A DNA stretch of 64,000 nucleotides. Origin: Phoronis australis. Taxonomy: Eukaryota; Animalia; Phoronida. The stretch is from the NCBI GenBank assembly GCA_002633005.1, contig NMRA01000803.1, forward strand, positions 1-64,000, written 5' to 3'. Position numbers and translations under genes: made by a program. The notes under the pieces were generated by a model. The model was not told the origin of the DNA and searched no databases. It was given only the letters and a program-made list of their open reading frames with translations. Position 1 is the stretch's first letter. Each line of letters opens with the position of its first letter. Positions 8,329 to 61,386 of this stretch are shown one piece after another.

Positions 8329-8960
8329 CTATTCACTGAAGGTGGGAATCTCATTGATGTTGTCAACTGTATAGGTTTTGCCGTCAATCATCAACCGATC
8401 TCTATTCAGCCATGCTTTGTTTACCTGCGGGCACCGTCTCGCTGACTTGAGAAAAGGTATCAGGCGCTTTCGATTGACAATAGTCTCATGTGGGAAGTCC
8501 TCGTTCACAAAAATTTTCGAACCTTGAAACTTTCTCTTTCCCATCCACACTTGTTGTTGTTTATAGAACGAAAACTTAGCAATTATAGTACCTTTATCGC
8601 CAATAGGGTGCACTCTTTCAAAAGAGATGTTGNGAAACTTTCTCTTTCCCATCCACACTTGTTGTCGAACGAAAATAGGGTGCACTCTTTCAAGAGAGGT
8701 GTTGTCAAGGCCCATATATCGCTTTAGCACTATAGATAAACTGTTCTCACACGACATATCCTGGGTTTGCGGGATCCCCACAAACACGAGATTGTTCCTT
8801 CTAGAATGCACTTCGAGAGATATGATTTTGGATTTCAAATACCCGTTTTCTTTGTCCAACAAAGCAATTTTCCGTCTGCACACTGTTTGGAATTTGCTAA
8901 GGCTTCTTCCGCAGTGTTAAAGGCTAAGTTTAACGATTCTTTTATGTGTGTTTATTTTTT
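8329..8960 (-). mobile_element. Non-LTR retrotransposon ORF1p remnant (L1/Transposase_22-type coiled coil + RRM + CTD)
   Basis: LEVHSRRNNLVFVGIP, FERVHPIG, IIAKF, KIFVNEDFP, RKRLIPFLK, AWLNRDRLMIDGKTY are typical ORF1p motifs; the upstream coiled-coil segment is in another frame; local duplication around the N at 8633. Confidence 0.75.
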
Positions 8961-9157
8961 TAACATAGATTGATCGTGTAAAGATTTTTGGCCAGTACCC
9001 AAAACAAATTCAATGTGAGGGTTTAACCGGCAAATTGTCGTCACACCGCGTTGAGGACAAAAACACGTGTACTAGAAAAATCGTCCGCCATCCGCTCTGT
9101 AGTATAGTCCACTGGAGGGCTAGGAAGCGAGACGTTGTCTGTGTGCCTCTTTTAATA

Positions 9158-9356
9158 ATGGACTTTGGAAAGTGTTTTCCAGTTTTTATATGTATCATGG
9201 TCAGTGTTATGCCTGCATGGACAATTCCAATCATGGACTGCACGCCCCTTCAATATTATAATGAGGGACTAGAACGCTGTCGTCCGTGCTCCGAGATTTG
9301 TGCAACAGAAATCAGAACCAGACTCGACAAGTGCTTGAAACATTTGTCGTGTAAGG
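9158..9356 (+). CDS. First coding exon of a TNF-receptor-like protein: signal peptide + TACI/BCMA/Grindelwald-type cysteine-rich domain
   Basis: ATG 9158; hydrophobic MDFGKCFPVFICIMVSVMPAWT followed by CTPLQYYNEGLERCRPCSEIC...C....C; GTGAGT donor at 9357 (phase 1). Downstream exons not found. Confidence 0.6.
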
Positions 9357-10767
9357 GTGAGTATAGGTTACATCAAATTGAAGGAACATTATCTTATTTA
9401 GGGCCGAAAATTCAGTTTGGGGATTACTTTGGATGGGATGCACTTGTTTAAGTTATTATAAGCTTTGACCAGAGTTATTTAATGACAAAATCCGTTGTGT
9501 TTTTGTTATTTGATTACGAATCGCCAATTCTCGCCGTTGTCTGCCAGACATCAGCTGAAATAAAGGCCGATGACTCTGCCACTTAAGATTTAAAATACTT
9601 TGATTTCATTTACGGAGTGCGATTTAGCTTAAAATGTTCTGCGATTTATGACAGCGGCGTTTATCTCCGCCAGCTGAGGGCATGACTGCGACCGCGGATG
9701 TTACAGGTTCCGCGCTGAAGTTGATTTATGAAAATCACTTCTCTCGCCAATAACGTCCCATTACACGACGGCAAACTATATTTCGAAAGAACTCTTACCA
9801 CTAAATTTATTAGCAAATCAGAAACGAGTTAACAGAAACTGATATTGTCGAAGCGCGTTATCGCGGCATTATTCTTTTTCAGTATTCCATTATGCTTTAA
9901 ATAAAAAATCAAATTAAGTAATAGAATGCAGAAAATAGCTTTTGACTGAAATCTGGCCAATTGGACGCCGAAGCGAGCGATACCGAACTTAACGCTGTAT
10001 GAAAAATGCTTGTGTGAAACGTACTAAACAAATATATACGAGGCTGTAATTTGTGAAATGTCTAGTCCTATTTTAATGATTTTTCAATTTTCGATTGATG
10101 AAACTGATTTCGTGTTTTAATTTGGTGATAGCTAGGACCAATATCCCTCCCAGGTGAAAGCAATGGAAAGTACAGTTGTATTTACACAATACACCCCATT
10201 CAACCGATGATATGCAAACAGCGCATTACCCTTTTGCACGCTCTGTTGGTTTTGCACAAATGATCCGGCGTTGTGCATTGTTGTTCAGGACACAATGCCG
10301 ATTGTCCAGTTCGCCTATTCCTGTGTAGTAGGGTGTGTAAACGCTATTCTCTTGGCATGTCGACAACGAGCAACATTTCAAGTTCGTTGCTCAGCCCAAA
10401 ACATAAAGACTAACGCCAATTGTCGGTTATTTCCAGTAGAAACATAGTCAAACACAGCAGTGATGTGAAAAGTAGGAAACCTGTAGGATTCAATTTTTGA
10501 CTTTATACACGAATATGCCCTTCATTGAGTACGTGTTTTTAGTATCAATATCATGACCAAATTTCATGTGGTGTAAACATTCAATAAGAAACATAAAAAA
10601 ATCTGTCAAGATTTCTAAATTCTCATTTTGTTTTCGCAACATTCGATTTTTCAAAAAATTTTACAGAAAAATTCATGATAGACAGCTAACTACAGAGAGA
10701 ACAGTGCATAACTCATAGTTTCTGAAAGTCTCTCTTGAATCTGATGAGACATTTCTGAGACAAGACG

Positions 10768-10909: not shown

Positions 10910-12472
10910 AGACGTTCTGAAGTTGGCTAAATTTTGCCATTTTTATGGTTGCTAATATTATACCTTAACTAAATCTAACGAGCACCCCAGCACTCCTCCT
11001 CAGCAGGTAATGCCATCTCTGAACTGTGTAATGGATGCTTTGACCAGTTGATTAATTGTTCACTAGCCATACCTTAGGCATCATTTCTGTACATANGAAA
11101 ATATGTCTAGGATAACCAACCAACCTTATTTTAGCACAAAATGACATGGAAAAAGGTTGCCTTCGCCTTTAAAGTATTTACTAAGTGTTACAAATGAAAG
11201 TCAGTCCTTTGGCCTTACTGTGGCTATTTTTATCAAGAGCGACGCGTTTTTCACGTTTATTTTAAATCTGGGCCAATATGAAAGACAAATTCGCGGTATT
11301 CTGCGCGTGCAACAGTTCATCTGAATTTTGAGATAAAAAAACTTGCAATGGGCGTTTACTCATATCGGATTTAAATAATGTTAACGCGGATATATACCCA
11401 CCTTCCATCACAAAAACCAACTTTTGATTCAGAACACTTGCCATAATAAAGTTGGCTTCAAATTTTTTCTTGGCCAAATACAAAGTAATTTCAGGTCTTC
11501 GAAAGAACACACAGTCCGTTATTGATTGAGACCAGGCTTTGCAAGGTACATCGTCACGGCGAATCACTGATTTATGCACCACACATGGTTGAGAGGAACA
11601 GCGTACAGTCAGTTGATGGTAAACCTCCAGATCTCTTCTCATCTTAGTAAGGATCAAGTTCAGACTAATTCTATTTGCAACAATTGGTCTCAATCCAAAA
11701 TTAACTATTTGGACAGAACGCGGGTTTGTAGCCGCTTCAAAGATATTCTACAGGCTTCATATTAGTTTGAAACTTCATAAAATAGGTTTTAACCCATCAG
11801 TTCAGTTGAAACGTATCCTAAATCATGCGCGCATCCATCCTAAAAAATGGGGGGCTCTAATTTTTTAGAATGAGGTCCTTTTACTAAAAAAAAACGGTGT
11901 ACGTTAGGAGCTATGAATTGTGCATTCACCGGTTTTTGGTAGATCTTGCCTTTTTAGTGAACTTTTGTCTCGTTTTCTACTTTTTCGGACTTCTTTTCTT
12001 GTTTCTCTGAGGTGTACCTTTTTGGCACCCGCCCCCCCCCCCTCCCGAGTGCGCGCATGCAAATAACGCTCCTTCAACACGTCAACAATATCTGATACAG
12101 TAACAAAAGCCACATCCAAGAAAACGCTCACGGATTTGACTTCAACAAAACCAAAGACTAGATGAGTCTGGTATTCAACAGTGAAATAACGTTTATGGTC
12201 AACCTTTGTTCCGACGATAATTACACGTGCGTCACAAGTTACTTTCCACAGATGAAGAGGAAACGTGTGTTGGCGAAATCAAGGCACTTAATATGAGAAA
12301 ATACAAAGTATAAAAATAAAAATAGCAAATTCAATCTCTGGCAAGATGTATAATAAAAGAAGTCACAAGAGATGTTGTTAAACAGCTATAGGATTAACTT
12401 TCAAATTTGAAGTTCTGAAATCAAAAAAAAACAAAGTGGTTTGCAGTGCGTCAGAACTTGGGCCCGTTGGTG

Positions 12473-22009: not shown

Positions 22010-25000
22010 TCAGCTATTACCTCCACACAGTCCGCAACTTCTTTTACAGTTGGTCTTCATATAATTGGCGCTCTTCTGACATTCCCCGTTACTTGCCCAA
22101 TAAGAGCAGTGCTCGCTTTTGTCGGTGCAAGTACCTGAAAATAACAAAGAGTCTTGAGAATCGCTGGTCCCCGAACAATTTAAACTTTGGCGTTTGCAGG
22201 TAGATATTTATAACCTTATACTCAGAATATAATGTGGACTCTGCGAGTTAGCCGAGATCACGCAAGTCATCGCGAGATATCGCGGCCATGCATCGCAGGC
22301 GAAACGGTGACCTCACTTGCCGCGAGCTTTCACCCGATAGTACCTTGCGTAACGAAAAGGGGTTAAATAAGAATAAATGTGTCAACATTTTTCCCAAAGT
22401 ATTTCAAGAATAGTATTTCTTTGGAAGATCTTTACTAGGAAAGCATTATTGGCTAAGGGGGACTTGTTCATTGGAAAGTCTCTGTTTTGATAAGACGGTA
22501 TGGGCTACGATTGCGATCGTGCACGGTGTAGTTCCTACATATCCAATGGATGAAGGTTATCGAAGTGTATGTTCTGACAGTCAAAAGAGATTTGCGCGGT
22601 TAAATGGAGAGTAAGCAACACTCAGACCGTGACAGGCTACTACTGGAATGAACAAGAATTTAAATTAACACAAATAAATTTTGAACGTTCCTTAGGAAAG
22701 GACTCCCATCCACTCGCGGTGTGTCCCGTCCCCCGTGCTTTCCGAGTTGCACGTCAAGTACATGTACATGTATCTGCGAGAATCTCATTGCCTAAATTTT
22801 CCACATTGCGAATTACGGATTGGAAAATTTCTGCAATTTAGAACTATGCCGGCAGTTCACTCTTCTGAAAATTTTCACGTGCAATTTCAAAACTTGACAA
22901 TAGAGCTTTCTTATTGTCAGTCACCAAATCAGATGGAAAATCCAAGGAGAGCCGGTTCATAGCAGCTTGAAATTTAGTGAGTTGTACCAGTGAAGGAGTA
23001 ATAATGCCCATGTCGGGAGTGCTCAGGACCAAGAAGAATCACAAAGGCGAGAGTTTCCCGAATATGCCCAAAACATCACTAGCGTAATGTAAAATGGCGG
23101 TCATTGAAGTGATTGGTCTATGATGTTAGAATGTTAAACTAGGAGATAGAATTCACCGTTTCCGTTTTATAAGGGCCGAAAGTTAAGTTCAAACCTTTGT
23201 ATCCCCCCACCCCTCCCCTCCTCACATCGCAGTTGGTCCACACTTGCCCGGCCTCACTCAGATGACAAGGCAGTCCCGGTCTCAAAGAACTGACAAGTCA
23301 TTATTGGTAGAGTTCATGCTCGATGAGTAAACTGGTTGTTGAGTGTGGGTTGAAGCAATAACGAGCTCTCAATTATTTCTAAGCCCAGAAATCACGTCTA
23401 GTTTGGCTAAAGAACAATTTGAGACCAATTTCATAACGGTCAGTGGTCTTAATCAGAAGTTGAATCGTGGGACAAAAGGCTGATTTATCAGTAACCAATT
23501 TAACTTACCACCTGTTCCGGTTCCTGTCCCGGTTCCTGTCCCGGTTCCTGTCCCAGTTCCTGTCCCGGTCCCGCCTTGGCAGTTCGTTCTAAAACCTGCA
23601 GATTCTTCAATTTCTAAAAAAATTCAAATGTGTCGAGCTATATAGTATGCAAATCATTTATAAAAATCGCCAAAATCTTGAACGACCACGTTTGAAGTAG
23701 CATAAAGGCTTGAGTTAACGAACTGAATAGCCTACATATCGACGTAGTCACGGTGACGCGTGAAGGGATGACAATCAACGGTAAGTTATATTTTAAAATA
23801 TTCATTTAATATTTGATGGTTTCAAGTTTCACAGTTTTGATCTTTATACACAATGTTTGCTTTGTCGCGCAATTCAACAGCTTTTCCAACTATCGCAAGC
23901 ACGAGGCTTGCGTTCCATAGATTCAAGACCTTCGCGAAAACGAAAGATCACCTAAGACTTCGTGTTCCATTTTATACAGGTTTCAGTGCTTGCGGGACTA
24001 CACTTTACTAATTTTTGGGAAGTGTGGCGAACAGAAGTATAGTTTGCAAATAGAAGTTAAGTCGCAGCAACATGTCTTATTGATGACACAGCCAGGGCCC
24101 ATGGTCTAATCTTTACTCGAAATGCAATTGTCTCAATTTTTTGAGATTTTCTATAATTCTACTTTAACATAAACTCTTGATAACTTTCATTAATCTGTGT
24201 TCGGTTACAGTATGGTCTAAGCATCTGATCCTATGTACCTGATGACCCCTAATTTGCACTTGATGATCCCCAAGACTCGATCTACAAACTTTAGTAGAAA
24301 CTCGAGATTAAAAGTAAAACCTTGAGATTTCAAGTTCAGACTTGGTGTCATCATGTCCACAGTAGGATTGCAGAAGCCTTATTATACTCGAGCACAAAAC
24401 TAGAGTAGAGCAGACAATGCCAAAAATAGTTTAGAGCAAGTGATCACCCTTGCTTCCACTAGCGTGCATCTTGTTACAGAAAGGACCTCAGTTATCCTAT
24501 ACTTACGCCTTGTGCTTCCACATCGTTTGATGTAAGTATTTTGACAAGGGAAAACTTCAAGCACTAGGTCGTATAAAGTTCTGTCATAAGACTGCAGTTG
24601 ACTTTTTGTGGTCACGTGATTGCGAACTCCATCTGGCGTTGCGGAGTATGGCTTCACGTTGAAAAAAGCGCGGGCGCCTTCGGCCTGAATATAGTGGAGA
24701 GAGTGGCGTTAGTAATAAGAACACGTCAGGTCGATGTGAATAGCGGGCATTCTTGTAGGTTGCATAAAACACATAAATGTAGGAACAAAGAAACTTTTAG
24801 GTACGTGGGATCCTCGTCATGTACCGGGTATCCCGCATGTTAAAATTATACTGGGCCTTGTTTTAGCCCATGAACATTTACTGAATAATATATAAATCTT
24901 TGAAACAGAATAACGTCCTGTTAACTTCGTCACTCGTCAAAAGGTTGGAGCAAAATTGAAAGTCCATCTTATGTCTGCTAACTACACAACAGTGCATAGT

Positions 25001-28000
25001 TTTCTTTCCAGCACACGGTGCCTTTCTACGCACACAGCGTGTGCATGAGCGCATAGCCATTACACGAGTGTAGATGAGGTACATTCAGTGTAGTAACATT
25101 CTAAGATAACTCCTTTCCAGTACAAGGTAACAAAGTGTTTGTGATGCCGGACCAGGGGAACTTGTAAACAAGAACAATTTGCTCCCAAATTGAAAAGATC
25201 ATAAATGAAGTAGGTTACGTAGAACAAGTTTTTTGCGAGATTGGTGATATGCGAGAACACGCTAAAATTATCCAAGTGTTTTGCTGCCAGTACCCAAGCT
25301 TCACTCTCGTAGACTAAGGAAGCAGCCGCCACGGCGAGGTGATAGGTTGGCGATGCTAGAATATTGAGCTAAAGGAGAAAATTATCTATTTCCACAAATT
25401 CCATTCCAAAGGCAACGATTTCTCGTCCTACGTGTTCGTGCTAGCGACTTGCCTTAGTTAACCCACACCATGTCAGCGGTGACACATTGCATCTTGGACA
25501 AAATTTGGGCCTGTAAATGATTACTTTGCCTTTCGTTTCGTATTTAAATCGGCAATAAGCTCGGGTACTGTCGAATAAGTGAACTTTTTCGCTTAGACAG
25601 TTTACCCTTATCAACTTGTTCCTCACTCAGATGAGAAATGGTTTCTGGATTTGTAAAGAACTGGCAGTTCGCTATTCCTTGAGATCATGTTCGGCGCATC
25701 AACTGAAACGCTGTGTCAAGCCAACCTGTGCTGTCTGGTCTCAAACAATAATGATTTTCTAATGCTTTTGACACCTTCAAATCACCCTCAGCTTCTGTTT
25801 TGAAACCAATTTCAAAGCGGTAGGTGATCTAATTCGTTCGTTTGTGGGGGAAGGTGGGTTTAAACTGAACGAAATTCACTTACGAAGTACTCATGAAGCG
25901 TGCTCATAGAGTAAGTATTTGCCCAAAGTCCACGACTCTTGGCGCTGTTGTAGGCATTGGTTAGTCGTTGGCGATAATTGTTTATGGCGAAAGTGGCTCC
26001 CAGGATTTCAACACCATGTAAAAACTCATGGATGGCGATATCCTCGTCGCTGCAATGAAAATAATACAACTTTGATTCTAGCAGTCTGTGTGTGTAGAGG
26101 CAGAGTGACGTATGACATAATTAAATGTTTTACTGCCTTTAAAATGTGCCTCATAACTGCTGACTAAATCGCTGCTGGATCTTAATAGCGTATGGTCTCA
26201 TTAAAATAATTCATAAGTTGGAAGATACCTTATAATTACTTGGCGAAATAAATTTCGCCAAGTATACTGCTCTTAGATCAAGTTTTTTGTTCGAACTCTA
26301 CAGGTCCGATTCCCACGAAATTCACTAACAACCCGTAGTCCCGAAAGTACTGAAACCCTATTGTTTTTCGTCACGATCTGATCCAAGATGGCGGACGTGG
26401 TGGCCATTTTTTTCGATTTCAGATGGAAAGACTCATTGAGGCCGCAACTTTTGACGAACACATTTGAAAATCGGAAAAATGTAGAAGTAGACAAGAAGTA
26501 CCAATATCTTCAAAATCATGAACTTAAAGATGGCGGAAATATCGGCGATTGCGCATGCGCATCTCGATTTCGGGAAAAAAGCGTTTTTTCCTGCAAAGGG
26601 TGCATTGAAAATTTTTCAGGTTTTCAGTTTCTTGCAACTAACTATTACTAAATGCTGCGTAACTGCAAGTTCCTTTCAGGATGGAGGATCTGGTGCATTT
26701 TCACCCATTTTCAATCGTGCTGGAGTGATATTTTCAACGGGAAGAGAAAATGAAGTGAATTTTTGTATGTAGTCTCTCTGAGGTATACTCTTTCATAAGA
26801 CGTCTAATAATTTTTTCACAGATGTACTGTTATTGAGTTATTTGCCTTTGAATTTCAAAAAAATGCAAATTTTCGAAAATGTTACGGAATTTTAAAACAC
26901 AGTCTCTTTAGATAGAATTTTAAACGGGCTTTCTGAAGATATTTTTCATTTCTCACTAGGACGTCTACTTTTTGGGTTATATGAGATTTTCTGATAACGC
27001 TGTTCCTTTGTTGACCGATTGAACACGACTGTAGCCTATTTCTCACTGATTTCTGAATTTTTTTTCATCATGTGAATGTTTTCATCATGTTCATAATCGC
27101 CACCACCATCATCATCGTCATCATCATTCCATTGAAGTCTTTTCAGTAAGTTTCGCTCTTCCGAGCGCTTTCATATTATTTTGTCAGTATGGCAGATGGT
27201 GCGAGTTGTTTTGCAACAAGATAATTGACTAAAAGCAGACGAGTATTACATTGTGAATTATTTTAGCAACCACGTTTATCAACTAGCTGTGAGGCAGTTA
27301 AAAGCTGGACAACGCACTGTTTTTTTGTTTTTTTTAATTTAGAAGCTGGGCATTTACAAAACCTTAGTTTTAAATGTGTGCAGAGATTAATGAAAGTGTG
27401 CGAGACAACGCTTTTCCTGGAAGGTGGTCTTTAACAGTCAGGATTTGAGCCTGCTGAAATTAATGAAACACTGAACGATTCCCGGATCTTGCATATCGCC
27501 AACTTACTGCCAACGGTCTAAGTTCTTCTGACAAAGAATGTTTTCTTCCGCGCCCGTGCAGATTGGTTGATGTGTAGTAGCGCCAAAGCCTCGTGCTCGT
27601 GTGTTCCAGTAGTCAGGGAGATTTGAGTGTTCTGGAATGTCAGTGGTCTTTTGGTTTTTCCCGATGATTCCCATTCTACCAAAGTGTTGGTAATACGAGT
27701 TCCGAATGTCATATCGATCCGCGAATAGAAATCGCACGATGTAGCAAGCTCTCCTAAGAGCATCGTCAGCGACAACACTAGATGCTGAAATACGGTCATA
27801 GGATTATTTAAAATAGTATAGAACAAAGGGCTAACTTTAAAATCGCCCACGGTTGATTTTGCCCCTATGCCTCTGATGTCTTACGTTCTAAATATGTTGA
27901 TCCTTACATAAGGCGGTGAGTGGTGGAAATGATTCCAAGGCGGCATCTTTCAAGTTCACCTACGATCCTCCTAATCTCTGTCCCGGACCATCATACATCA

Positions 28001-31000
28001 AACCCATGTTACAATACCCTGGCCACGGGCTCTAGTCACAACTCCAAACTGACACAAGTCGAAAATGCTATCTTCGGCACACCAGTTGATCATACTCTAG
28101 TACGGGTGCAAAATTCCCTACTTAGACCGGTCCTTCTGGACTGGAGTTTGGTCACCGGGTATGTGGAGAACGTTTTCGGCTCGCGTGTGTAGTTTAGGGG
28201 TGGAGGCGGTCTGGGATTTGTACCACGACGGGCCAGATTTGTTGTCCAATTGTCCGTGACAGGCGCTGACAGGATCCTTCCTGAAGCTTTAGGCTACTAC
28301 ACCGTAAGACATGTGCATGTTTTCATTTATAAAATTGATTATAAAAACAACGCCGATAGGATAGAGGGTGTGAGTGGAGCAAATAATTTTAAAGGGAGAG
28401 TCAATACAATACAAGTTCGACTGGGGAAACGTGGTTCTTACCTACGATAGGGATCCCGTACGCCTCTGTATACTTGCGATAGAAATATGACAATCCGCTG
28501 GGTCTCATGTGGGTTGCACTTCGCAAGTTGTTAGGAACCGCTCTCACATGATTGCAACTATGCGTGTTTGTGGCGGAGCCTGGACGAAGAGTTGACCGTC
28601 GACGATAATCTGCAAGATAATAATTGTCTTCATCACCGTCCCATTCAGCCGGGGTTAGTTGTGGTTGTGTGCCCTGCGCGTCAATAAACAATGCAATATG
28701 CGGACAGAGTCATTTGCCTTTTGCTGATTCACCGGACTATTGCCGCAAGCAAATGTATTTGCTTCGCTTACATTCGTACATTAATCTACGAATCGGAATA
28801 CCTCGGGTGTTTTCGCAGCATCAAATTTGTCTGCCCCGAAATAACGCGCCGAACATGACGGTGACATCCCGTTGCTCCCAACTTGTTCGATTGTATAGCC
28901 CAACAACAAGTTGGGAAGTTTACTCCCCCCCCCCCCTCCGTAGTCAATTAACTCCATTCTGGCGTTGATGGTTGGAAGGCCTGCGCTCTTTTGTTTGATA
29001 ATTGCTCTAATCTCCGATCAGATTGTATCTAGCCTGACTGGGGTGGGCTGATAAAAATGAAAGTTAAGTTAATTCAGATATTATCGCACGTTCAGCATCC
29101 CTCACGTCTGGAAAAGTTACTGAACGACAGGACGCTGTAATGAGGTGAGATTAAACATGTTTACTTCGGCAGAGGTAGGTTTATTCCACGGTTTATCAAT
29201 GTTCAAACGCACCTATGACGCCAGGGCGGCGCGCCATACGGGACTGGGGCCATAGCCCCCACCTATTTCCGGTGCGGCGCTGCCCTTGCTCTCATATGCA
29301 GCGCAGACGAGTAGTGGGGCTGGGGGGCGTTCTATAACTACCCCCACTTATTTCACATGCTGCACCGCCCATGTGACGTGGTTGACCAAGAATAACAAAT
29401 AAATCATGGGCCCTCACTAAACTTTCCGAAAATCAAGGCAATTCTACGTCGCGCAACACTATATGTATGTACATGTATTCCCGATGAGATCAGAACGCGA
29501 CCACTTGAGAATTCTTCAGCGTGCTGTTAATTTCAACATCGTGGCGTTTGCACAGCCAGTGATCAAGAAATATTCCCATATTCCAAATAGAGGTTTCCGA
29601 TTCAGTGACGTTATAAAACGATTCTGATTGGATTACACATCGGCATTGTTTGATCACACATCCATCCATATGACCTTACTTCACTATAAGCAGTCATATT
29701 TTAGTATCTAATTGAATGGAGAGACCTCAAAATTCAAAGTTTCAAAACACAGAAGGTGGTGTTAAACCTTGGAACTTGGAGTTGCGTTTGGGATGTTGAG
29801 CACCTTAAATTTGAAGTCGCCATGTCGACGAGGGGGATTTCTTCTTACACACCAGCAGCGCTGATAGTTGTTTTTCAAATACCCTGTGGTGCTGTGATCG
29901 CGGGCTCCTAAGGCATTCGCTGACGTCACTGAAAACTCGGAGGCATGATAGATTATAGACAGCAGATTTGCAACTCGGACATTTTCTTGCGAGATATCCT
30001 AGAGGAGGCGCCACCCTTCTAAATTACCAATTTCAGTTTCCGATTAGTGTATTGTGACGGGAAATTCTCCCATATATTTTACTGTCTAGTAAAACGAAAA
30101 AAAAATAAATTCGACATTAAAACGCTGTTCAAAGTCCTCCAATAGTAAAATTGTTGGTACTGTGAGTACTTTTGGCGATGTTACTGGTCATGTAATTGCT
30201 AAATTCAAACTTCAGTGCTGCAAACATTTAGCCCTTTACATTTCGCCTGTGTGACCGAACACCCGACCACACAACGGCCGACCATGATTAGCAGACGACG
30301 TACTTGCCTGAAGTAAAACTTGCTAATTTTGCCAGGTGTCGCAATTGAATAATGACGTCACGACTTATGCGTAAGCTCATAGCTTTCGTCTATTGAAAAT
30401 ATATGGAGTTGGCGGTCCATGTCTATGGAGACATGTATAAACCTGGGATGGGTTCCGTATACGCAAAATTTTGAGTAGTGAAACTTGTGTGATCACGTAA
30501 TTGGTTTGCATGGAGATATCTCGGCAGACCATGCATTAATTACCTTGCTTTTTAGGACGTTCTTGGGTTTACGGAATGACGCAGGCCTAGCATCATACAG
30601 CCAATCAGGCTCCAGTTTGAAAATCACGTGAGTTACAGCCTGGCTGAAGTCTGCACAGGTACAGATAACGTTCAGCTACGGGGTGGCATCAGCTTCGTCC
30701 ACGAGCCTCAAGATGACGATATGATCTGTTTCGCCATTGAGGCTGTATCCCTTATGTGCGCAGATTGGTGGTGCACGACATTGACCGCTGACAAGAGCGA
30801 CACATGAAACCTTCAACCATCTGACGATTCTCGTACTTACTTCTTTAAGGTGATGTGATAAATTTAATTATTTTCCACCAGAAGCTAAACAAGATCAAAA
30901 CGCAAATTTTCACTCTCTCCGCAGGCGTTGTTGGCTACCATTCGTGATTTGGAAGTAGAGGACGCCGTTTTCATTATTGTTTGAAATAAAAGGCCACACG

Positions 31001-31994
31001 CGTACTTATTGTCAATTATTGACAGCACCATACAAATTGTCCTGATCTAAACCTAAATTGCGGCATAAACACCACTCATGTTGATTTTTGTATTATATTA
31101 GAGCAATTTGCAGAGGTGATATAACTTGAATTAATAGAGCTTGCGATATTAAGGCGATTTCTGTAAAAACATGTCAGAATTCTACTAGGTAAATTTCTCC
31201 TCACCAAGCCGCAAATGGCTTATCAGCGCCATCGCCAGGCTTGGGGACGAGGCTGAGGTGACATTTGGGCAACGAAAATAAGTGTGCGCTGTCCAGACGA
31301 CTGTCCCGGCGACAGTCGTTCAGTTGCTCATGACGAGAATGGACAGTCCTGCCATTTGACTTCATCCGGAACACTTAGGCGTTTTCGTTGCCTCAAATTT
31401 CCTCTCGGAGATGAATGATATCTGCATGTGTAAACTTCAGCCATGGCATTCTTCAGACTGAAAGTCGCACTAATGATTTTCCAAATGATTAAAGTCTGCA
31501 CATGTACAGATAGCTTTTACATCTGAGAAGAATTTGGAGACTGCGAAAAAACCCAGACTTGTTCTGGACGATACAGCTGTATGTAGAACGTACACGTTTC
31601 TGACATACGCCGAACATGGTTTCAAGAGACATTTGTTTTGCCTAATTATCATAAATCTAGTTTTAACGATTAATCTCCACTTATAATGATGGCACGGCAA
31701 CAAGTCCGAACATGATTTTCAATTAAAGTCGCAAATCAAGAGGTTTATTTTTAAAACGGCGGTGAATCATCCACCTGCTTCAGCCGGTCAAAAAATGCCT
31801 TGCGAACACAATATTGTAATTTACAGCTTATGAACGTTTATCTGCGTTTCTACAGCAATATGCCTACTTACTTGCTGCCACATCCGGGGTATTGTAAAGT
31901 ACGTAATATTCGGCGTCGCCAAGCGGGAGAGAAACAGCGCCTGCGTTATCGCCAACAGGGTCTTGCGGTAACTCTGAGGCGACTTGGTAGGAAG
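22010..31994 (-). CDS. Multi-exon zinc metallopeptidase (anthrax lethal factor/PPEP-like, M34-like gluzincin) with Gly-Thr linker and C-terminal ShKT domain; 5' end not located
   Basis: Phase-consistent GT-AG exons: 31994-31872 and 30650-30544 (both tentative), 28673-28442, 27784-27508, 26049-25884, 24684-24507, 23613-23509, 22134-22010 (TGA). Spliced protein: FYRKYTEAYGIPIVASSVVADDALRRACYIVRFLFADRYDIR...TTDIPEH...YWNTRARGFGAT...TGAEENILC...EDIAIHEFLHGV...GLWANTYSMSTLHEYFAEG...NHVTTKSQLQSYDRTLYDLVLEVFPC, then (GT)n, then CTDKSEHCSYWASNGECQKSANYMKTNCKRSCGLC. Confidence 0.88.
23509..23575 (-). repeat. Coding 12 bp tandem repeat (gggacaggaacc)n encoding a (Gly-Thr)n linker
   Basis: Plus strand (ggttcctgtccc)n inside exon 23613-23509. 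Confidence 0.85.
28855..29072 (-). repeat. ~220 bp diverged repeat, inverted partner of 34367-34588
   Basis: Reverse complement shares ggagattagagcaattatc.aacaaaagag, gccagaatggagttaat and ttcccaacttg with 34367-34588. Confidence 0.8.
29221..29373. mobile_element. GC-rich MITE, 5 bp TSD TGACG
   Basis: ccagggcggcg ... caccgcccatg termini flanked by TGACG on both sides. Confidence 0.6.
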
Positions 31995-36641: not shown

Positions 36642-37630
36642 ACGAGCGAAACTCACGAGAGACTACCGATCGTCAAGCTCTTAATGAAAGTTCTATTTTT
36701 TCAGAAAATGATCTGGTATTTCCATTTGACGTCATGTATTAGATAATGTACTAATTGTGTCATCAAAGTGCTTGTATTTCGTTGTTCGTGAGACTGAGTT
36801 GGACAAAGATTTACTGGATCTAGGCCCTACATCGCAACAACACTAGGCCTATCACAATCCCGAGTTGGAACGCGTTGACTGAGCTACCCGAGTCAAATGC
36901 CCAGTCTAACAAGATTTACAAGTTTTTTAACATTAGTTTGATCCTCTGCTTGGCTTGTCCGCAACACTGGCCATCGGCATTGCCAAGGTTCCACTTACCG
37001 TAGGCACCGAGTAATCTTTACCACATCTGAAGGTCACAATGCTGCAAAGCATTAGCAATTTTACACTTTCTGTAAATCCGCAATTCTAGTCACAAAAATC
37101 TACCATCGATGTAAGACCGTAGTTACAAGTATTAGCACATGATTTATAATTTCAGTTTACGTTCTACCCGGTGACCAAGCAGAGCCTAAACGCTTACCCA
37201 GAAGAACGAGGAGCGCACTTGCCGCAAACATGTTGATAGACCTACGTGTGGTGCGTTATCGGAGTCGTGAAGTACGTGAGAACTGGCCATGCAGCTTCGG
37301 GTTATATGGTTTGTCGCGCCCACCAATGAGCAAAAGCGTCGCCAATGGACAACACGGGCATGCGTATAGTCGTGTGTCTGTCACATATGGCTTACCCTTA
37401 CTGATAAACTTTGAATGTTCAACTACATGTACGATATTCACACATCCCCACGAAACTCAGTAGTGGACGACTAAGTTCCTCGTGCTGAACTCGGCATGTT
37501 GAATTTGTTTCTTTTTACTGTTTGATTTTGATAGATGTAAATAAAAGGGGTACACTTTTCAAAGCATAGTCAGATTATCCATGGAGCTAACTAAGCAGCT
37601 GTAGCTTGGGTGCCCCGCACAAAATAGGGC
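36642..37630 (+). repeat. Third, more diverged copy of the first ~1.2 kb of the 12.5/16.4 kb duplicated unit (interspersed repeat)
   Basis: cgaaactcacgagagactacc, ttctacccggtgaccaagcagagcct and gagcgcacttgccgcaaacatgttga shared in the same order. Confidence 0.85.
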
Positions 37631-38689: not shown

Positions 38690-41255
38690 GTAAGTACGAA
38701 AAGTAGACGAGGTGTACAGCGTACTTCGCCCTGTTTTAAAACTGGTTTGGCTTCAATTGACTTTGAGTCAGTCTTAGATAACAATTTGTCACAAAATCAT
38801 AACAACAATTATAGCCACTTAAGAACAATAATTTTAGATTTGGTAAATAAACATTTTCACTCTAAAACCAAACGTTTCAAGAAGCATAAACATAAACTAC
38901 ATTGGACATGTCAAAACAATATATGTGCGAGACAAAATCTATAAAAAAAGAAAACCACACCTTCTGGTTTTATTTTTCTCGCATTTACTCATTAAAACTG
39001 AGAAATTATAACAGTATACGTAAGTTTGTAATAGAAGAACCAAATGTATGTACAATGAAAAACAGTTCAAGCAGCACAAAAATGATTTACGTCAAACTTG
39101 GCAAGTCATCAAAAACGCAATTTCTAATCCATCGTTCTGAACTGTTCTCCCACAGTTTATCACCTCTACTGCATCTGGACACACTACTATTAAACAAATC
39201 AGTTCAACAACTATTTAATTAACATTGGAAAAAATTGGCTTCTCAAATATCGATATGGAATGAACGTTTCGAAAATTATCTTGATGGTTCCCCTGACTCT
39301 ATATTTACGTTTCAATCCGTTGATGATGTCGAAGTACTAAAGGCAATGAAAAATCTAAAATCAAAATCCACTACAGATTGTGATGGCCTATCGTGTTCAT
39401 TTGTAAAAAATACTCGAACTTATTATTCAAACCAATTTCTATGATTATAAACCAATCCCTACGCACAGGTATTTTCCCCCATGGTTTGAAGGTAGCTAAG
39501 GTAATCCCTATTTATAAAGGTAATGACACTGACAGTCACTCTCTTGTTAACTACAGACCAATATCTACCTATTATTTCCAAAGTTTTTAAAAAAACTGTT
39601 CATGATCAAGTCTATTCATATTTTCTCATAACAATCTTCTATATAAGTCCCAGTATGGTTTCAGACCTAACCACTCCACTGAACTCGCGGCTACTGAATT
39701 CGTCCACTCTCTTTACAAAGCCTTATACAAAGTTTGAACCCTATTTCCCTATTCATGGATCTTTTTAAAGCCTTTGATACCATTGATCACGATATCCTAT
39801 TAAACATTAAAGCAATACGGGTTTTCTAGTAACGAGTTTTATTGGCTTCAATGCTACCTTGAAAACAGAAAGCAGTTTGTCTGTCTTGATACTGTCACTT
39901 CATCCCAACTTGGCATTTCTACAGGTGTACAACAGGGATCTAGTCTAAGACCTCTCCTATTTTTAGTCTATGTAAATGACATCACTTCCTTCGCTAAGGC
40001 ACAGTTCGTTATGTACGCAAACGACACATGCCTGTTAATTCCTTTCGGTGTAAACAAAAATCATAGCGTGTCAGCGATCAAATCATCAGAATTAATAATA
40101 CTCTCTACAAGATGTTTTTGATTGGTTAAATACCAATAAATTATCGCTCAACACAAGTAAAACTAAATTTATGCTATTTCGATTTCCACAGTTTTGGCAA
40201 TTTCGTTAAAAATTTCCTGAGCATGCTTGTTCCAGGAAAGATGACTGTCTACAAAAATTCCTAAAAACTCGAAATTTTCAACTCTGTTAATAATTTCATT
40301 GTGGTTTTGATTAGAGGAATGTCATCCACAAACACACACTCCTGATGATATACAATGCTCTTATACTGTCACATCTATATTTTGGAGTAACACTATGGGG
40401 GTTCAATAATTGTACGAGACTGAAACTTCTGAAGAAAGAGAGCTTTGGGAAATGTTACCAATTCTTCGTTTTTTCACAAACAGAAACAATTTGCAGGGAA
40501 ATCAGAACACGTCTTCTTGACGACATATTTAACCAAGCTTGCCTTAAATTCTTCTACAAATTCAAACATAGTCAATTGCCTATTTACTTTTATGGTAACA
40601 TTTTTTTCTAATTCCATTGGTCACCAAGAGATCTTCCTAGAATATGCAGTCAACAACCCACCCTAAAACTGCCCACCTACAACAGATACAGTTGTGAAAA
40701 TTCATTAATGTTCAAAATACCAAATCTAATAAACACTGGGTCCATCCAAGACGTGTAACAGACAAAATCGACACGCATAGCTTAAATGGGTTCTCCATGT
40801 ATTTAAAAACTTACATATTTTAAGGGCTTAAAAGCACTTACAGCTCTCAGTGTAACGTTCTACATTGCTATCCATGTTGTAATTGAAGTAACCGTGAACA
40901 CAAGTCTTACATCTTAGTCAAATGTTTCTCTAACCGTGCGGTTTCCCTTGTATCATCTCTATGTTTAATTCTTTGTAACCTGCAATTAAATTACGTTTTT
41001 AAATAAACTCGCATTGTATTTTATTTCTTCGTAGATGTACTTTTTGTTGTTATCTATATTGCTCTTCTTAATTGTTAATAACTATTTAATTTATTGTTAC
41101 TCGGTGGTCAGCTATCAGCGGCCCGTGCCTTCGCTGGTCACCCAATCATATAACAATGTAGGTTTTTATATGATTTAAAAATAAACTCTCTCTCTCTCTC
41201 CCTCTCTCTCTCCCTCCCTCCCTCCCTCTCTCCCTCTCCCTCTCTNTCCCCCCTC
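38690..41255 (+). mobile_element. Decayed, 5'-truncated CR1/L2-like non-LTR retrotransposon (RT pseudogene) with (TC)n tail
   Basis: Frameshifted RT motifs: IINQSLRTGIFPHGLKVAKVIPIYKG, NYRPIS, QYGFRPNHST, DLFKAFDTIDHDILL, GVQQGS, MYANDT, IYNALILSHLYFGVTLWG; AATAAA followed by a TC microsatellite at about 41180-41255. Confidence 0.9.
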
Positions 41256-42477: not shown

Positions 42478-45400
42478 TTAATCGACTATGCTCCGCAGAA
42501 CATATTTCACGGAATATGCGAACACTGCAAAACCCACAATGACTGCGAGGTTTGTGAGCGCATTTCCCACAATGCCTTGCTCCATGTTTCCTGGCATACC
42601 GTCCTGCATCTGATGTATGGTCGACCGTCCACTGTCATCGACATTAGTTTGCACACACTGGGCCAACTCCTCCTGGATTTTCTGCAGCTTATCACGAATT
42701 TCCTGGAAATGAGAACAGCACGGGGTAAAGTTAGTGAGTCTCTGAAGCCACATAACTTTAGCTACAGTCTCCACGATTTAGCATCGACTAAACAGGATAT
42801 TCGGCAGCCAAAATTTTGCAGCTGTAACTGTTGCAAAAGACCGATAAAGCTCCGTGCCCAAAAAATGTCAATTCATCACTTGTTTAGTGGATCAGGCGAA
42901 ATCTACACGGTTCGTATTAAGATCTATGTTCCCTGTCCCAGGATCTGAGAAGTGAACGATACATTTAGTCTTAAACGAGTACCCTGCACCAGACTTATAA
43001 CAGAGCACAGCGTTTGAATTGCATAGTCTCATAAGTTGACAATCTGTTCAAATCTCCCAAAATTAGACACAAATTGTTAGTATTCAATGAGAATTGGCTA
43101 CAATGAGCTGAGCTACATGGTTTGTGTCTAAACTTGGCTTTTCGGCATTGACAATGTCATCAGCTATGACAAAAATACTACTTATTGCTTCAAATCGAAA
43201 TATTCCACAGAGTTAAGCTATCACAACATTGTGTCTTGTGACAAAGTTATTGCTCCGGCACATTTCAGAGGAGTGTTCAGACAATCCATACCTGACATTC
43301 CAGAAGATGAACGTACATGTGCACTAACAATTTTTACCGGACATTCCAGAAGGTGTACGTACCTGCGTTATTTCTGGGAAAATTTCGCAAAATATCTGAT
43401 CTTTAAGATTTGTAGTGAGACTCTGAGCAGCCAACTGCCTTTTCTGCAACAGAGAAGAGAAACTGGCTTCCAGTCTGACACAAATGCTGCCCATGATCAA
43501 CCCATCAAGACGAGGCGTGCTCTAGACTGAAGTCACACCACACACATTTTGTTAGCAGGGCATAGTTACTAGGCAGTAAGTTTCCACATGTGATGGTGAA
43601 TATCAAAAGTTCCAATCTACCATGACTTGAATCTTGCCCCTGATCGCCATAAAGGTGGTCACAACTCGCATCTAACATAGATTCTGATTTATGAGCTAGG
43701 GAAAGAACTGACCAAGCGAAACGTTCTACCCATTCAATCACTGGCTCATCAATTTTACCCATACTTAAAGTTACTCAGCACACCACTTAAGTAAAAATGA
43801 GTGTTACCATGGGACATCCCATTTCAGCCAATGGTGAATGTTTTGAATACTTTTGCTGTTGAGGCATAAAATCGAGTTGCAAAATAAAGCAAGTTAACAC
43901 TTCTAGTTTTCTACAGTATACTCACTGTGAACAGAATAGAGCTTTTGGCTCTTATCTTTTGGCTTAAGAAATCACTGCATTGTTATTTCACCTTACTTTG
44001 AAGCCATGCTACAAATAACCAGGGCTTGGAATGACCAATGACAAAAAACGCGGAAACGTTGAAACTTTTACGGCCCAAATCATGCCCGATAACCAGCCTT
44101 GAAATGGTCAATGTGAACCTTTCCCCGACAAAAATCGGGAGGACTAAAAAAAACGTTACCACCATCAGTAGCATGCATCTGCGTCCTTTTAGCTCGCCCG
44201 TCCACTCCCAACCCACACATTTTTGTCTGCAGAGCGGTAGTATTTGTCGCCGCGCTTAACAATAACACGAGACGCCATTGAAAATCCCACCATGCTGTCC
44301 CAGATGCCCCGGCAATGTTGACAATTTACGTTCCTCCGAAACATAAAGAGCAACTTCCGCTTTTCGAGGTGAACGTCGTCTGCAACGCCGCGGTAAGAAA
44401 GGAATTTGCCGCGGAGATTTTATATCAAATCTGATTTTTTTAAGCGGAAATATTATAAAAAAAGTGGAAAGCAAATTTGAAAAAAGCGGAAATCCGCGTT
44501 TCCGCGGAAAATTCCAAGCCCTGAATAACTTAACATCACATGCAACCTAATTCAGTCAAAATAGAATGGAACTCATTTCAGGGTGAGCTTAGACAACTAA
44601 ATTGACCATGGATAAAACATTGATTAAAAAACAAACAAGACAGTCCGATACAAGAGGCATATCTTAACGACAGTGACAACCTGACAACCAAGTATATGAC
44701 TCACTGTATAATCTGACGTCTCCATACTTCCTAATGTTGGACTTTTCTCCAGCATGAAACTCAACAGTCCAGTTAGTATAGTCGACACGGACCAGGCAGG
44801 GTTCCAAGTGTCGGGGTGGAAGTCACTGATAGATAGACACAGCCTGAAATCAGCAACGCTTACTATAAATATCAAATGCGTCGTACATACCGCATTCCAG
44901 TGGTGGCAAGATGCTCAAGGCTATTTTTCAGCCATGCATTGATCAATTTTTGCAACAACACACAACTTGATGTGAAAGTGAAATTACGACTGAATGTTGT
45001 GCAGTTGGCAATTCTTGAAAACAAAAGTAGAGAAACGATGAACACAATGTGCTCTATGCACCAAGATTGAATTTTTGACGAGGAAGAAACTGCCTAGTAT
45101 CTCACAGACTCCCCCCAAAGGCACACCATTAGTGAACACATGCAACATTGTCTTAAATTACGTCTTACCTTGTATTGCACTTAAAGCGACCATTAGGTGT
45201 GATCATGTATATGCTAGGAGGTTTGAACGGAAACTCTCTCGGAAAAACAAGTTTTCCGTGGTAGTAGCCACCTTCGTACGGCGACTTCTCTGGTCCTTTC
45301 ACAACATAGTGCCTGTAATGTCAAAATTTGCAGTTTAGGGCCAAACCTGATATACCAGGCCTAAATAAAAATTAAGTTCATTTGCCCTTACCCAACCGAA

Positions 45401-47492
45401 CCGCTAAAAACCCGCCTACTCAGAAAATTTAGTGACAAAATTCTTCTGACTTTTTGTATACTACTCTACAAAAAATCAATTTCATACTTTTGCTTGATTG
45501 ATGATACAGCCCAGGAATAAGTCTTTACTGCTGAATTGGTTGTTTCGTTACAAAATGTGCACAAAATCCTTCAACAAAATCTCAAACATGAATTGCTAAT
45601 TTCTCAAGACTCTTGAAGAAGGCGTGGCTCATTGGTTGAGACATTGTAGCAAAATTGGTGTATGAAGTTATAAAAAACTTTTTGCCAACCTACCTACCCA
45701 GATGTTAAAAGTAGGGTTGGGTATGGGCAAACAAAGATATTTTCATGACTGGCAACAGGGGGAAATTCTTCATTGAATATCGAGTTACATAATTACTGGC
45801 ACATGTCTATCAAACATTCCATTTCAAAATTTCACACCATGTACTAGAATATACGCAAAGAAACAAAAACCGATGTCACTTGTTACGCATCTGTTTACAG
45901 TTTCTGATGTATTCTGTTTTTAAACAGATTTGCACTACAAAATAGATGGACTAAGGATAATAGCAGAATCAAAGACACCACTGGCAGCAGATAACTTCGT
46001 GTAAACCGCAGTGTTATATTATACATTGTAAAGCTCAAAGTTTCTGTATTCCACCGATGGTCCCCGACGCCTCAGACTACAGCGTTTGCACGGTTTTAGC
46101 AGAAGATACCAGGTTCGAGTCTTGGTTGGGGTAGAAATCTTTTCAGACTTATATTCATCAGGTCACATGACATGGCCAACAGAGGCATGCTTACCAGACT
46201 TATAAATGTCTGCAAAATCTAAATTGTACAAGAAAACACGTCGAAATTTACTACTGTACGTCCATAGTACAAACACGTGACTATGAATACCTATTTGCAA
46301 TTAATTAAAAAATAATTCAGACATCTTTCACAGGTGGCACTTAACAGGGTTCTCCACTGGTGTTGGGCCCTCTTTAATTTCAGTCACTGAGTTTGTGCCC
46401 ATCCCATCCTAACTAATAGAAACGCTTCTCCATTCAATATTTCTTGACCCAGAATTATAAGACTAGCTCATTTCAACTGAAGGGCAAGTGTGTAGCACAG
46501 GAATTAATACCAACTGCAACAAAAGTTGTCACACAATCACCCCCTGGAGGAATTGTCCATAAAAAAGTACACCAGATAGTAAACTGTAGATTAATTAACA
46601 AATCCACCAGAAGGATTGTACTTACAATAAAGTGGGTCTGAATATTGAGTGATTTGTTTCACGTGTAATCAACCAATGTTGTTGCAAAAATGTTTAATAA
46701 GACCTTTCCCTATTAATGTAATACCCACTGCATCCTAAGTTGTCAAATGTATCTATTTTTTCTAGTAGCTTTTTCATAGCTTCAAAATGATCCAGAACAC
46801 TTGTGTAGAAACGGAAAGTGTGAATGAAACTCTGGGCTGGTTTTAACAGATAAAAAACAGAAGCTTTTAAGTATTGTGGATTTGATAACGGAAATTAAAG
46901 AAACATTCTTTACTTTACAGTGCTAAGAATATCCGTAAAAATTTAAATTAAAACTAATTCTATTTTTACTATACATAGTTCACTCATTTGTGCAATGACT
47001 TATTTGAACAAAAAGATTTTTTAAAATGTAGGAAACAAGCTCCAATTTAAAAATCTTGAGACAGTCCTCCTAAGACCCTGAATATAAGGAGACAATGCTT
47101 TTGATAGCCTTGGTTGTCAGCACACGAGTGCCCTACATGGTCTTCCGCGGTTCCGCCCTCTTTCAATTTTGAGAAGTGGAGACCACTGCTTACAACAGCT
47201 TTGAAGATCATTCAATGTTTTACCACTATAACTGTAGAAGCACATTTGCCCTTTGCTTGGTCTGTGTTGTATATACAATATACAATTACGGATTCTAATT
47301 CACTATGACTTAGAAATTTTAAAGAAGTGGCTCCACTGGTTTGTGAAGATAGCTAATACTCCTTAGGTACCATTCTAGAATGTTGGTAGGGAGTGGAGCT
47401 GCTGTGATGTAAGGAACTGGATCTTTCATGATGCGAATGTAGTCCTGCTTGAGCCTCGCAGTGGCCGACGAGTTTGTTCTCTTTGTGGCCAT
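42478..47492 (-). CDS. UBE2J2: Ubiquitin-conjugating enzyme E2 J2 (Ubc6-like, tail-anchored ERAD E2)
   Basis: Exons 47492-47371, 45312-45169, 44843-44705, 43443-43363, 42702-42478; all GT-AG and phase-consistent. [18 protein letters not shown]...PTNILEWHYVVKGP...[13 protein letters not shown]...[20 protein letters not shown]...; C-terminal [20 protein letters not shown]. Confidence 0.96.
44020..44523. mobile_element. Non-autonomous hAT-like DNA transposon in a UBE2J2 intron, 13 bp TIR, 6 bp TSD AATAAC
   Basis: cagggcttggaat ... attccaagccctg; AATAAC at 44014-44019 and 44524-44529; subterminal gcggaaa repeats. Confidence 0.85.
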
Positions 47493-61141: not shown

Positions 61142-61386
61142 TTTCTCTTATTTAGGTCACGAGAAGTTGCGAGAAAAGTATAATTTAAATGCTCGAATTG
61201 TTATAAATTAATGTAAAAAATCGATTCTGCATAAACACAGCATCTTTTTTACATGTAAATGTGTTTCTTGAATGCAATAGTTCCAAGAATCATTAGCATA
61301 TTTTATTCATAAATGTTTTTTGGAGCACAAGCTTTGAGGCTATTAAAGGAGATTTCATTTCACATGTGTTCAGCCATATTTCGAAC
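61142..61386. promoter_or_regulatory. Bidirectional promoter region between MRPL47 and PHB2
   Basis: Divergent ATGs at 61141 (-) and 61387 (+), only 245 bp apart. Confidence 0.75.

Follow-up and report, generated by a model that had tools for sequence, protein, structure and literature searches.

A spliced and expressed Phoronis australis gene joins a predicted zinc peptidase of probable bacterial ancestry to two ShK domains

As an earlier note on this DNA had proposed that 24507..28520 encodes a bacterial-type protease domain acquired by ancient horizontal transfer and later broken by introns, we asked whether the locus is a genuine animal gene, what it encodes and where its domain came from. 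The window is the whole stretch analysed, 64,000 nucleotides of P. australis contig NMRA01000803.1 (positions 1 to 64,000, forward strand). The motifs listed in the note were all found, in order, on the minus strand; the IPIVASS, EYFAEG and NHV...EVF stretches appear once the exons are spliced, and those read directly in the window are:

28484-28470, minus strand: FYRKY
27647-27627, minus strand: TTDIPEH
27611-27588, minus strand: YWNTRARG
27554-27531, minus strand: GAEENILC
26045-26016, minus strand: EDIAIHEFLH

The motif string is not a product of chance, because exon 4 alone retrieves full-length relatives with E down to 7e-58. The region 24507..28520 is real coding sequence but only part of a nine-exon gene (37231-20526, minus strand) with a product of 425 aa and a frame open throughout: two exons lie upstream, the start of exon 3 is at 28609, and a further three exons downstream encode a linker and two ShK domains. 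RNA runs (X2, X3, X4) were chosen via the species label; all eight introns are GT-AG with junction reads in X2 and X3, the first mate being on the plus strand in every case. The exons and their joints are:

37198..37231, minus strand: exon 1 (coding), ATG and most of the likely signal peptide (judged by eye), aa 1-11, phase-1 donor
31994/37198, minus strand: joint of exons 1-2, reads 23 X2, 26 X3
31872..31994, minus strand: exon 2, remainder of the signal peptide plus likely pro-region, aa 12-52, no Pfam match
28609/31872, minus strand: joint of exons 2-3, reads 41 X2, 26 X3
28442..28609, minus strand: exon 3, a basic RRR site, an RPG motif and the first part of the peptidase domain, aa 53-108, from homologue alignment
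27784/28442, minus strand: joint of exons 3-4, reads 42 X2, 19 X3
27508..27784, minus strand: exon 4, TTDIPEH, RARG and EENILC motifs, aa 109-200, from homologues
26049/27508, minus strand: joint of exons 4-5, reads 49 X2, 29 X3, 9 X4
25884..26049, minus strand: exon 5, zinc motif H208-E209-x-x-H212 (26030-26016), Tyr247 and Glu254, from conservation counts
24683/25883, minus strand: joint of exons 5-6, reads 45 X2, 41 X3
24507..24684, minus strand: exon 6, last part of the peptidase domain, including the animal-type FPC...KRC motif
23613/24507, minus strand: joint of exons 6-7, reads 78 X2, 34 X3
23509..23613, minus strand: exon 7, connector with Cys and linker of Gly-Thr repeats
22131/23506, minus strand: joint of exons 7-8, reads 61 X2, 26 X3
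22021..22134, minus strand: exon 8, ShK domain 1, phase 1-1, PF01549 E=5e-12, above cut-off
20636/22019, minus strand: joint of exons 8-9, reads 81 X2, 50 X3
20526..20638, minus strand: exon 9, ShK domain 2 and stop codon (20528-20526), PF01549 E=7e-12, above cut-off

The three in-domain introns that the note had placed within 24507..28520 (657, 1458 and 1199 nt; GT-AG; phases 1, 2 and 0) were each spanned by reads (42, 49 and 45 from X2; 19, 29 and 41 from X3). The locus is an intact, spliced and expressed animal gene; as the note had argued from the introns, it is not a contaminant, because the introns are spliced with RNA reads and the frame is open. GC content (0.49 in coding sequence against about 0.40 in the window) was uninformative. 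Two orphan copies of the exon-1 region also lie in the window:

16900..17304, minus strand: orphan copy with ATG at 17081 and its donor retained, 81% like 37045-37464 (blastn, tblastn)
13007..13418, minus strand: second orphan copy, ATG at 13192, 83% like 37045-37453 (blastn, tblastn)

Read depth was about 0 over both, and no domain exons follow the copy at 16900..17304 within the window.

Judged from its sequence, the product has a likely signal peptide and pro-region, a zinc-peptidase domain of the HExxH/Tyr/Glu kind and, on a Gly-Thr linker, a pair of ShK domains scoring 46.6 and 46.1 bits against PF01549 (cut-off 20.9). All five zinc-peptidase residues (H208, E209, H212, Y247 and E254) are present, with the Tyr, and a Glu seven residues on, downstream of HExxH; a residue of the Glu254 type is presumably the third zinc ligand. 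The same set is intact in 113/134 animal-side domains and 303/317 others. The domain exons matched nothing in Pfam when searched singly (0/4), NCBIfam held no family for the domain in six homologues, and ATLF (PF07737) scored 12-24.8 bits on homologues (cut-off 27.4), a few members having a precomputed PF07737 match; annotation sees only the ShK domains because neither Pfam nor NCBIfam offers a family that fits the peptidase domain. A fold model was made on a homologue about 50% identical to the window protein (P0011; domain mostly pLDDT 70-95), and its best match was PPEP-2 (Z 13.7, rmsd 3.3, 170 aligned), followed by PPEP-3 (Z 13.2) and lethal factor (Z 11.1), while unrelated folds reached no more than 5.7; Foldseek on the homologue model concurred (E 3e-5). 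A bacterial homologue (P0028) gave one weak match to PDB sequences (2L0R, E 0.69), in which its HExxH, Tyr and Glu line up with the lethal-factor catalytic centre. By this modelling, we predict that the window protein is a zinc endopeptidase with the Pro-Pro endopeptidase/lethal-factor fold.

The protein would be exported and its pro-region removed, perhaps at RRR 55-57. A basic site that is a convertase candidate occurs in 51/97 animal-side proteins, a count made without a control; a conserved convertase site is unsupported. Zinc would be bound by His208, His212 and Glu254, with Glu209 activating water and Tyr247 stabilising the intermediate, all as in PPEP-1/Zmp1, and the ShK domains on their flexible Gly-Thr tether may aim or regulate the peptidase, as proposed for ShK-astacins. 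By analogy, the putative role is most likely the cutting of extracellular proteins at gut or body-surface epithelia, in digestion, mucus or matrix turnover, or defence. It is very improbable that the domain instead only binds, without catalysis, as the protective-antigen-binding ATLF domain does, with the ShK domains doing the work: in the alignment, one or more catalytic residues are missing from 21/134 animal-side domains, and passages of PMC12943098 describe inactive ATLF domains, but the window copy retains all five catalytic residues.

Where the family occurs was taken from searches that listed 29 of 29 matches, the best 120 of 686, the best 120 of 1020 and the best 150 of 4434, the last being representatives at E up to 0.001 with unlabelled source, 30 of whose best 150 proteins were looked up by name. 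The earlier note had described the motif string as typical of uncharacterised bacterial secreted zinc proteins and patchy in animals. Its bacterial half held: the relatives are uncharacterised proteins from 12 phyla, mostly free-living groups (of 80 genome loci, 30 were from Planctomycetota, 13 from Bacteroidota, 8 from Verrucomicrobiota and 7 from Myxococcota), and about 3400 stretches were estimated in genome_contigs. Patchiness did not hold, the family being broad in invertebrates, with named members in eight animal phyla including Cnidaria (among them jellyfish, molluscs, starfish and amphioxus). Named eukaryotes among the matches listed were all cnidarians or bilaterians; the rows named there included none from vertebrates, insects or nematodes, and no non-animal eukaryote was among the best 120-150 matches per search. 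Of the two patterns that the note had said would together count against it, breadth across animals was found, and unicellular relatives were absent from the matches listed. The window protein is 61% identical to the best animal row and 45% to the best other row. ShK-like patterns occurred in 84/128 animal-side proteins and 0/174 others; viral contigs gave 43 pattern matches and 0 relatives. No paper on the family appeared in the literature listings consulted.

Before trees were built, we excluded domains of <150 profile positions, rows >30% gapped and rows >=90% identical; one set, cut from 381 rows to 336, also lost 24 domains whose matched stretch showed no HExxH, and another was trimmed from 576 to 452. 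Most of the 317 non-animal rows carry no taxon label and were assumed bacterial. In two IQ-TREE mixture trees, on subsets hand-picked after viewing FastTree, animal rows formed one side of the tree at 100/99 (32/80 and 25/55 rows; the bootstrap of the 80-row tree was not fully settled), and none of the 80 genome loci fell inside the 134-row animal group. A truncated Batillaria row (P0024), omitted from conservation and rooting counts, sat among bacteria in one FastTree run and returned to the animals in IQ-TREE. The note had called for a topology test, and grouping the window protein with seven myxobacterial-type rows, the sole donor group tested, was rejected by the AU test (p=0.0055). A protostome subgroup with the window protein (99/90 in the 80-row tree) was not recovered with other rows in the 55-row tree; branching order among the animal copies is unstable and agrees only in part with the species tree. 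The sister group of the animal copies also shifted between trees, and the animal stem measured 0.26-0.43. Minimal-deviation rooting placed the best root among bacteria (0.2118), with the animal stem near-tied (0.2133, rank 4/901). Animals are not plainly nested, because mean animal-to-other identity (40%) is below that among others (46%), in a set biased to top matches; identity among animals was 50%.

Since the family is broad in animals and all animal-type copies fall in one group, any transfer predates the cnidarian-bilaterian split. Our main reading, put at a probability of roughly 0.6, is a single transfer from bacteria to animals before that split, its product here a predicted secreted zinc peptidase with two ShK domains; given the near-tied roots and the shifting sister group, direction and donor are what we infer. 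The chief alternative, a sizeable minority possibility, is that the peptidase is older in eukaryotes, having been inherited from a eukaryotic ancestor of holozoan or greater depth, whether after an earlier transfer or by vertical descent, with wide loss and with members below the matches listed. Sponge, ctenophore or protist members could sit beyond the best 120-150 matches, the long animal stem leaves space for unsampled lineages, and loss is evidently common, as the unnamed vertebrates, insects and nematodes illustrate. Against it, the animal-weighted search, whose database includes EukProt entries, extended down to bacterial-type matches and held no sponge, placozoan, ctenophore or protist among its best 120 of 1020; five suspicious non-animal rows included none labelled eukaryotic (one Leptospira, four unnamed or hypothetical); and the sole eukaryote cluster shown by ESM Atlas is commonest in Mollusca.

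That the family was born in animals and passed to bacteria would suit the near-tied root on the animal stem and has a precedent in the astacins (parts of PMC9848320), but the spread of bacterial members over 12 mostly free-living phyla, their greater diversity (46% against 50% mean identity) and the bacterial provenance of all solved structures with related folds (PPEP, lethal factor, M90) make it very improbable. Recent transfer into the Phoronis lineage alone, or contamination, has next to no probability: the protein is about 40-45% identical to bacterial proteins over the whole domain, but its closer animal relatives reach 55-61%, the AU test and the ShK exons speak against it, and the eight RNA-supported introns with the 100/99 animal grouping in both IQ-TREE trees refute it.

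On the main reading of one early transfer, the note's sequence of acquisition and intron gain stands in part: the three in-domain introns look like later gains, but the event is not private to the Phoronis lineage, and a phase-1 intron after the domain (in the window gene the exon 6 donor, five codons past the last Cys) is common to the window gene and to cnidarian-side and echinoderm-side copies. An intronless domain would have acquired flanking phase-1 introns and extra cysteines, then become a shuffled module joined with ShK, Ig, ZP, TSP, EGF and adhesion GPCR, and only then gained internal introns separately per lineage, with apparent loss of the family in several lineages. A fuller version is tentative and rather doubtful: an undescribed animal ATLF/PPEP-fold protease family, from one bacterial transfer (perhaps from a myxobacterium) after sponges and ctenophores diverged and before the cnidarian-bilaterian split, carried as a phase 1-1 shuffling module into ShK and Ig/ZP proteins and into the ectodomain of an adhesion GPCR, and cutting proline-rich extracellular proteins. 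To our knowledge, few transfers dated to the base of the cnidarian-bilaterian lineage are dated well. The family would cleanly record domestication, from flanking phase-1 introns through domain shuffling to lineage-specific internal introns, and would add to the invertebrate secretome a zinc-protease class whose fold is otherwise solved only from bacteria.

Among known systems, the ESM Atlas cluster named 'Lysine-specific metallo-endopeptidase domain-containing protein' (52 members, 100% Eukaryota, commonest Mollusca, ATLF 17%, score 0.94) is probably this family; lysine specificity is an automatic cluster label that nothing in the analysis supports. Peptidase M90/MtfA (PF06167) lies in the same fold neighbourhood (3dl1, which we take to be MtfA, Z 8.5), with weak Pfam matches below cut-off; MtfA is a cytoplasmic regulator. 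Anthrax lethal factor's catalytic domain (ATLF, PF07737), presumably MEROPS M34, shares the fold (Z 11.1) and HExxH, Tyr and Glu +7, but at 13% identity and with homologues at <=24.8 bits against the Pfam cut-off of 27.4; the window gene has no toxin domains or delivery partner, its 425-aa product combining a single peptidase domain with a linker and a pair of ShK domains and lacking the multi-domain toxin layout with a protective-antigen-binding domain. Closest in fold are PPEP-1/Zmp1, PPEP-2 and PPEP-3, ATLF-fold zinc peptidases of Clostridioides, Paenibacillus and Geobacillus, which are likewise secreted, carry HExxH, Tyr and Glu and include the best fold matches (Z 13.7 and 13.2); Zmp1 has H142-E143-x-x-H146 and Y178 according to passages of PMC12943098 and, according to passages of PMC3841139, cleaves fibronectin and fibrinogen. 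The window family differs from the PPEPs in identity (14-17%), domain length (about 250 aa, the PPEPs having 185-215), motifs of its own (IPE, RARG and EEN), its animal host, introns and ShK domains. For cleavage between two prolines, the gene context in bacteria offers no more than a lead. In layout the window protein resembles the cnidarian and bilaterian astacins that bear ShK domains (HMP1, HMP2, HAS7), for which sections of PMC9848320 give a signal peptide, pro-region, zinc peptidase and ShK, but unlike astacins and other metzincins it has no HExxHxxGxxH, positions 215 and 218 being Glu and Gly; and the holozoan origin and passage to bacteria proposed for astacins in the same sections run opposite to the direction inferred here.

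The ordered motifs that the earlier note had read as a bacterial-type protease domain were all found on the minus strand, in order, spread over four exons of a nine-exon gene (37231-20526). All eight of its introns (5203, 3262, 657, 1458, 1199, 893, 1374 and 1382 nt) are GT-AG, with RNA reads across their joints in two stranded runs (X2, 23-81 reads per joint, and X3, 19-50; about 18-19% of each was read); the first mate lay on the plus strand in all these junction reads, consistent with a minus-strand RNA. A further run, X4, gave 9 reads, at one joint only among the joints listed. Joining the exons gave an open 425-aa frame (intron phases 1,1,1,2,0,1,1,1) with a hydrophobic N-terminus (by eye, a putative signal peptide), a putative pro-region to near RRR 55-57, the domain at approximately aa 60-315, a Gly-Thr linker and two ShK domains of one exon apiece (Pfam 46.6 and 46.1 bits). 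Animal-like in its DNA, the window has ~40% GC and carries spliced housekeeping exons, such as that of MRP-L47; contamination as the source of the gene, against which introns had already been cited, is excluded by the read-spanned junctions. A 212-base contig from run X1 differed at 19 positions from exon 4 (27571-27780), which suggests a paralogue or divergent allele. The other features of the window are:

12468-15423 and 16388-19272: tandem duplication, copies 94% alike over ~3 kb
55989-56201 (minus), 61297-61527 (plus), 47322-47537 and 42481-42777 (minus): housekeeping exons
38896-40608 (plus) and 8332-8916 (minus): broken frames, no Pfam match
~9100-9400 (plus): short frame with hydrophobic start and cysteine-rich stretch, no Pfam match, low RNA coverage
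61825-62999, 49875-50117, 547-917 and 4920-5675: long inverted repeats, plus a short tandem repeat flanking an N gap

Within each tandem copy lies an orphan exon 1 belonging to the protease gene, with ATG and donor retained, and the copies had almost no RNA reads. MRP-L47 was matched by Pfam (E=4e-9); the other housekeeping exons, pieces with no Pfam match, we take to be prohibitin-2-like and UBE2J2-like. The broken frames resemble LINE reverse-transcriptase and ORF1-type remnants, and the cysteine-rich stretch resembles a TNF-receptor repeat.

Homologue searches (matches listed: 29 of 29, best 120 of 686, best 120 of 1020 and best 150 of 4434) named the cnidarians Sanderia, Rhopilema, Clytia and Xenia, with a 'GoldUCD' label that we assume to be Aurelia (Cnidaria), and, among bilaterians, Mollusca, Annelida, Nemertea, Arthropoda (sea spider, barnacle), Echinodermata, Hemichordata and amphioxus. 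Among the matches listed, many rows of which are nameless, none bore the name of a sponge, ctenophore, placozoan, protist, fungus, vertebrate, insect or nematode. The earlier note had set homologues broadly spread over animals and unicellular relatives against a transfer; the first part of that breadth was found, in cnidarians and bilaterians, and the second was not among the names listed. Of 500 confirmed bacterial loci, the best 80 covered 12 named phyla; pattern-matching stretches are estimated at ~3400, and a search for viral relatives found none.

In a FastTree of 336 domains, 90 rows (aligned domains) including all named animals fell on a single branch (support 1.0), with a Leptospira pair and then myxobacteria as sister; with 452 domains, 134 rows did so (0.999), with 0 of 80 genome loci within, a truncated Batillaria row (P0024) outside and a 23-row myxobacterial group as sister. 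IQ-TREE (LG+C20) placed the animals on one side at 100/99 both with 80 rows (32 animals), where no single sister group was supported, and with 55 (25 animals, P0024 among them), where the sister was one Polyangiales row (97/87). As the sister group changes from tree to tree, myxobacteria as nearest bacterial kin are a lean only, and constraining the window protein to group with seven myxobacterial-type rows was rejected (p-AU 0.0055). Minimal-deviation rooting preferred a root among bacteria (0.2118), with the animal stem near-tied (0.2133), and mean identities were 50% among animals, 46% among others and 40% between the two (3000 sampled pairs each); the direction of transfer therefore rests on the bacterial breadth, the bacterial home of the fold and the apparent absence elsewhere in eukaryotes. 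We favour, at a probability of about 0.6, a single acquisition of the whole family from bacteria that predated the cnidarian-bilaterian split; the ancient transfer first proposed for this gene survives in that older, family-wide form. The paper listings and abstract openings searched held no description of the protease family; supplementary transfer lists of genome papers could already include it, and the 2015 hemichordate genome paper reportedly carries one.

Intron positions were compared among the homologues. L090 looks like a genomic contig, and its protein groups with a brittle star; here a single exon bears the whole domain, bounded by a phase-1 acceptor and, four codons past the Cys of KRC, a phase-1 donor. 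P0046 and P0178, grouping with Xenia, are single open frames ending just beyond that donor point, past which their cluster-mate P0145 runs on. L096, which could be either DNA or unspliced RNA, was set against transcript L084 (near Sanderia): it shares that phase-1 intron and also carries an internal phase-0 one, at a point that lacks an intron in the window gene (between aa 141 and 142 of the window protein). The window gene's own flanking phase-1 intron lies five codons past the Cys. From these positions, the phase-1 flanks look ancestral and the internal introns later, in agreement with the earlier proposal of intron gain after transfer; the sample is small, and some introns may have been lost instead. 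Judged from protein ends, P0008 (both ends, at window introns 3 and 5) and Batillaria P0023 and Haliotis P0089 (model breaks at intron 5) probably have introns at those positions. Ancestral phase-1 flanks fit with the fusions of the domain to Ig, ZP, TSP, EGF and an Acanthaster adhesion GPCR. In the last (P0196/P0309), the peptidase domain is N-terminal in a protein annotated as adhesion GPCR, the fusion being known from annotation.

A Pfam scan of the four domain exons matched no family, and homologues gave sub-threshold matches to ATLF and Peptidase_M90. The sea-spider homologue P0011 shares ~50% identity with the window protein; its AlphaFold model matched PPEP-2 (Z 13.7, rmsd 3.3, 170 aligned), then PPEP-3 (13.2), lethal factor (11.1) and 3dl1 (8.5), and no other fold scored above 5.7; Foldseek ranked these in the same order. 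The window protein has H208-E209-x-x-H212, Y247 and E254, the Glu seven residues past the Tyr presumably being the third zinc ligand, and this set is complete in 113 of the 134 domains on the animal side and in 303 of the 317 others. Given the modelled fold and the kept residues, the protein probably acts as a secreted zinc endopeptidase of the PPEP type. It was judged to be neither a lethal-factor-like toxin nor an astacin. Several amphioxus, crinoid and annelid-side copies with substituted zinc motifs (P0005, P0006, P0022, P0227, P0299, L118) are probably inactive.

Gene context was taken from 141 loci of bacterial type and from every protein retrieved, with Pfam names from 82 ORFs. The domain was fused to cyclophilin in 10 cases, which seem to form one related planctomycete-verrucomicrobial group, and to DPP-IV-like sequence in 6; nearby genes were DPP-IV-like in 14 loci and GH127 in 7. 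These are raw counts, in which related genomes recur. Cyclophilin or VHL-beta fusions, or adjoining DPP-IV or glycoside hydrolase genes, were seen at L009, L050, L069, L073, L075, L022 and L044. This gene context, with the PPEP fold, hints at proline-rich substrates. PMC9848320 reports ShK-astacins from gut and barrier epithelia, and by that analogy the window protein would most likely act in digestion, on matrix or in defence. In the Zmp1/PPEP-1 protease, activity depends on both E143 and H146 (PMC3841139) and Y178 is part of the active site (PMC12943098). E143 and H146 correspond to E209 and H212 of the window protein.
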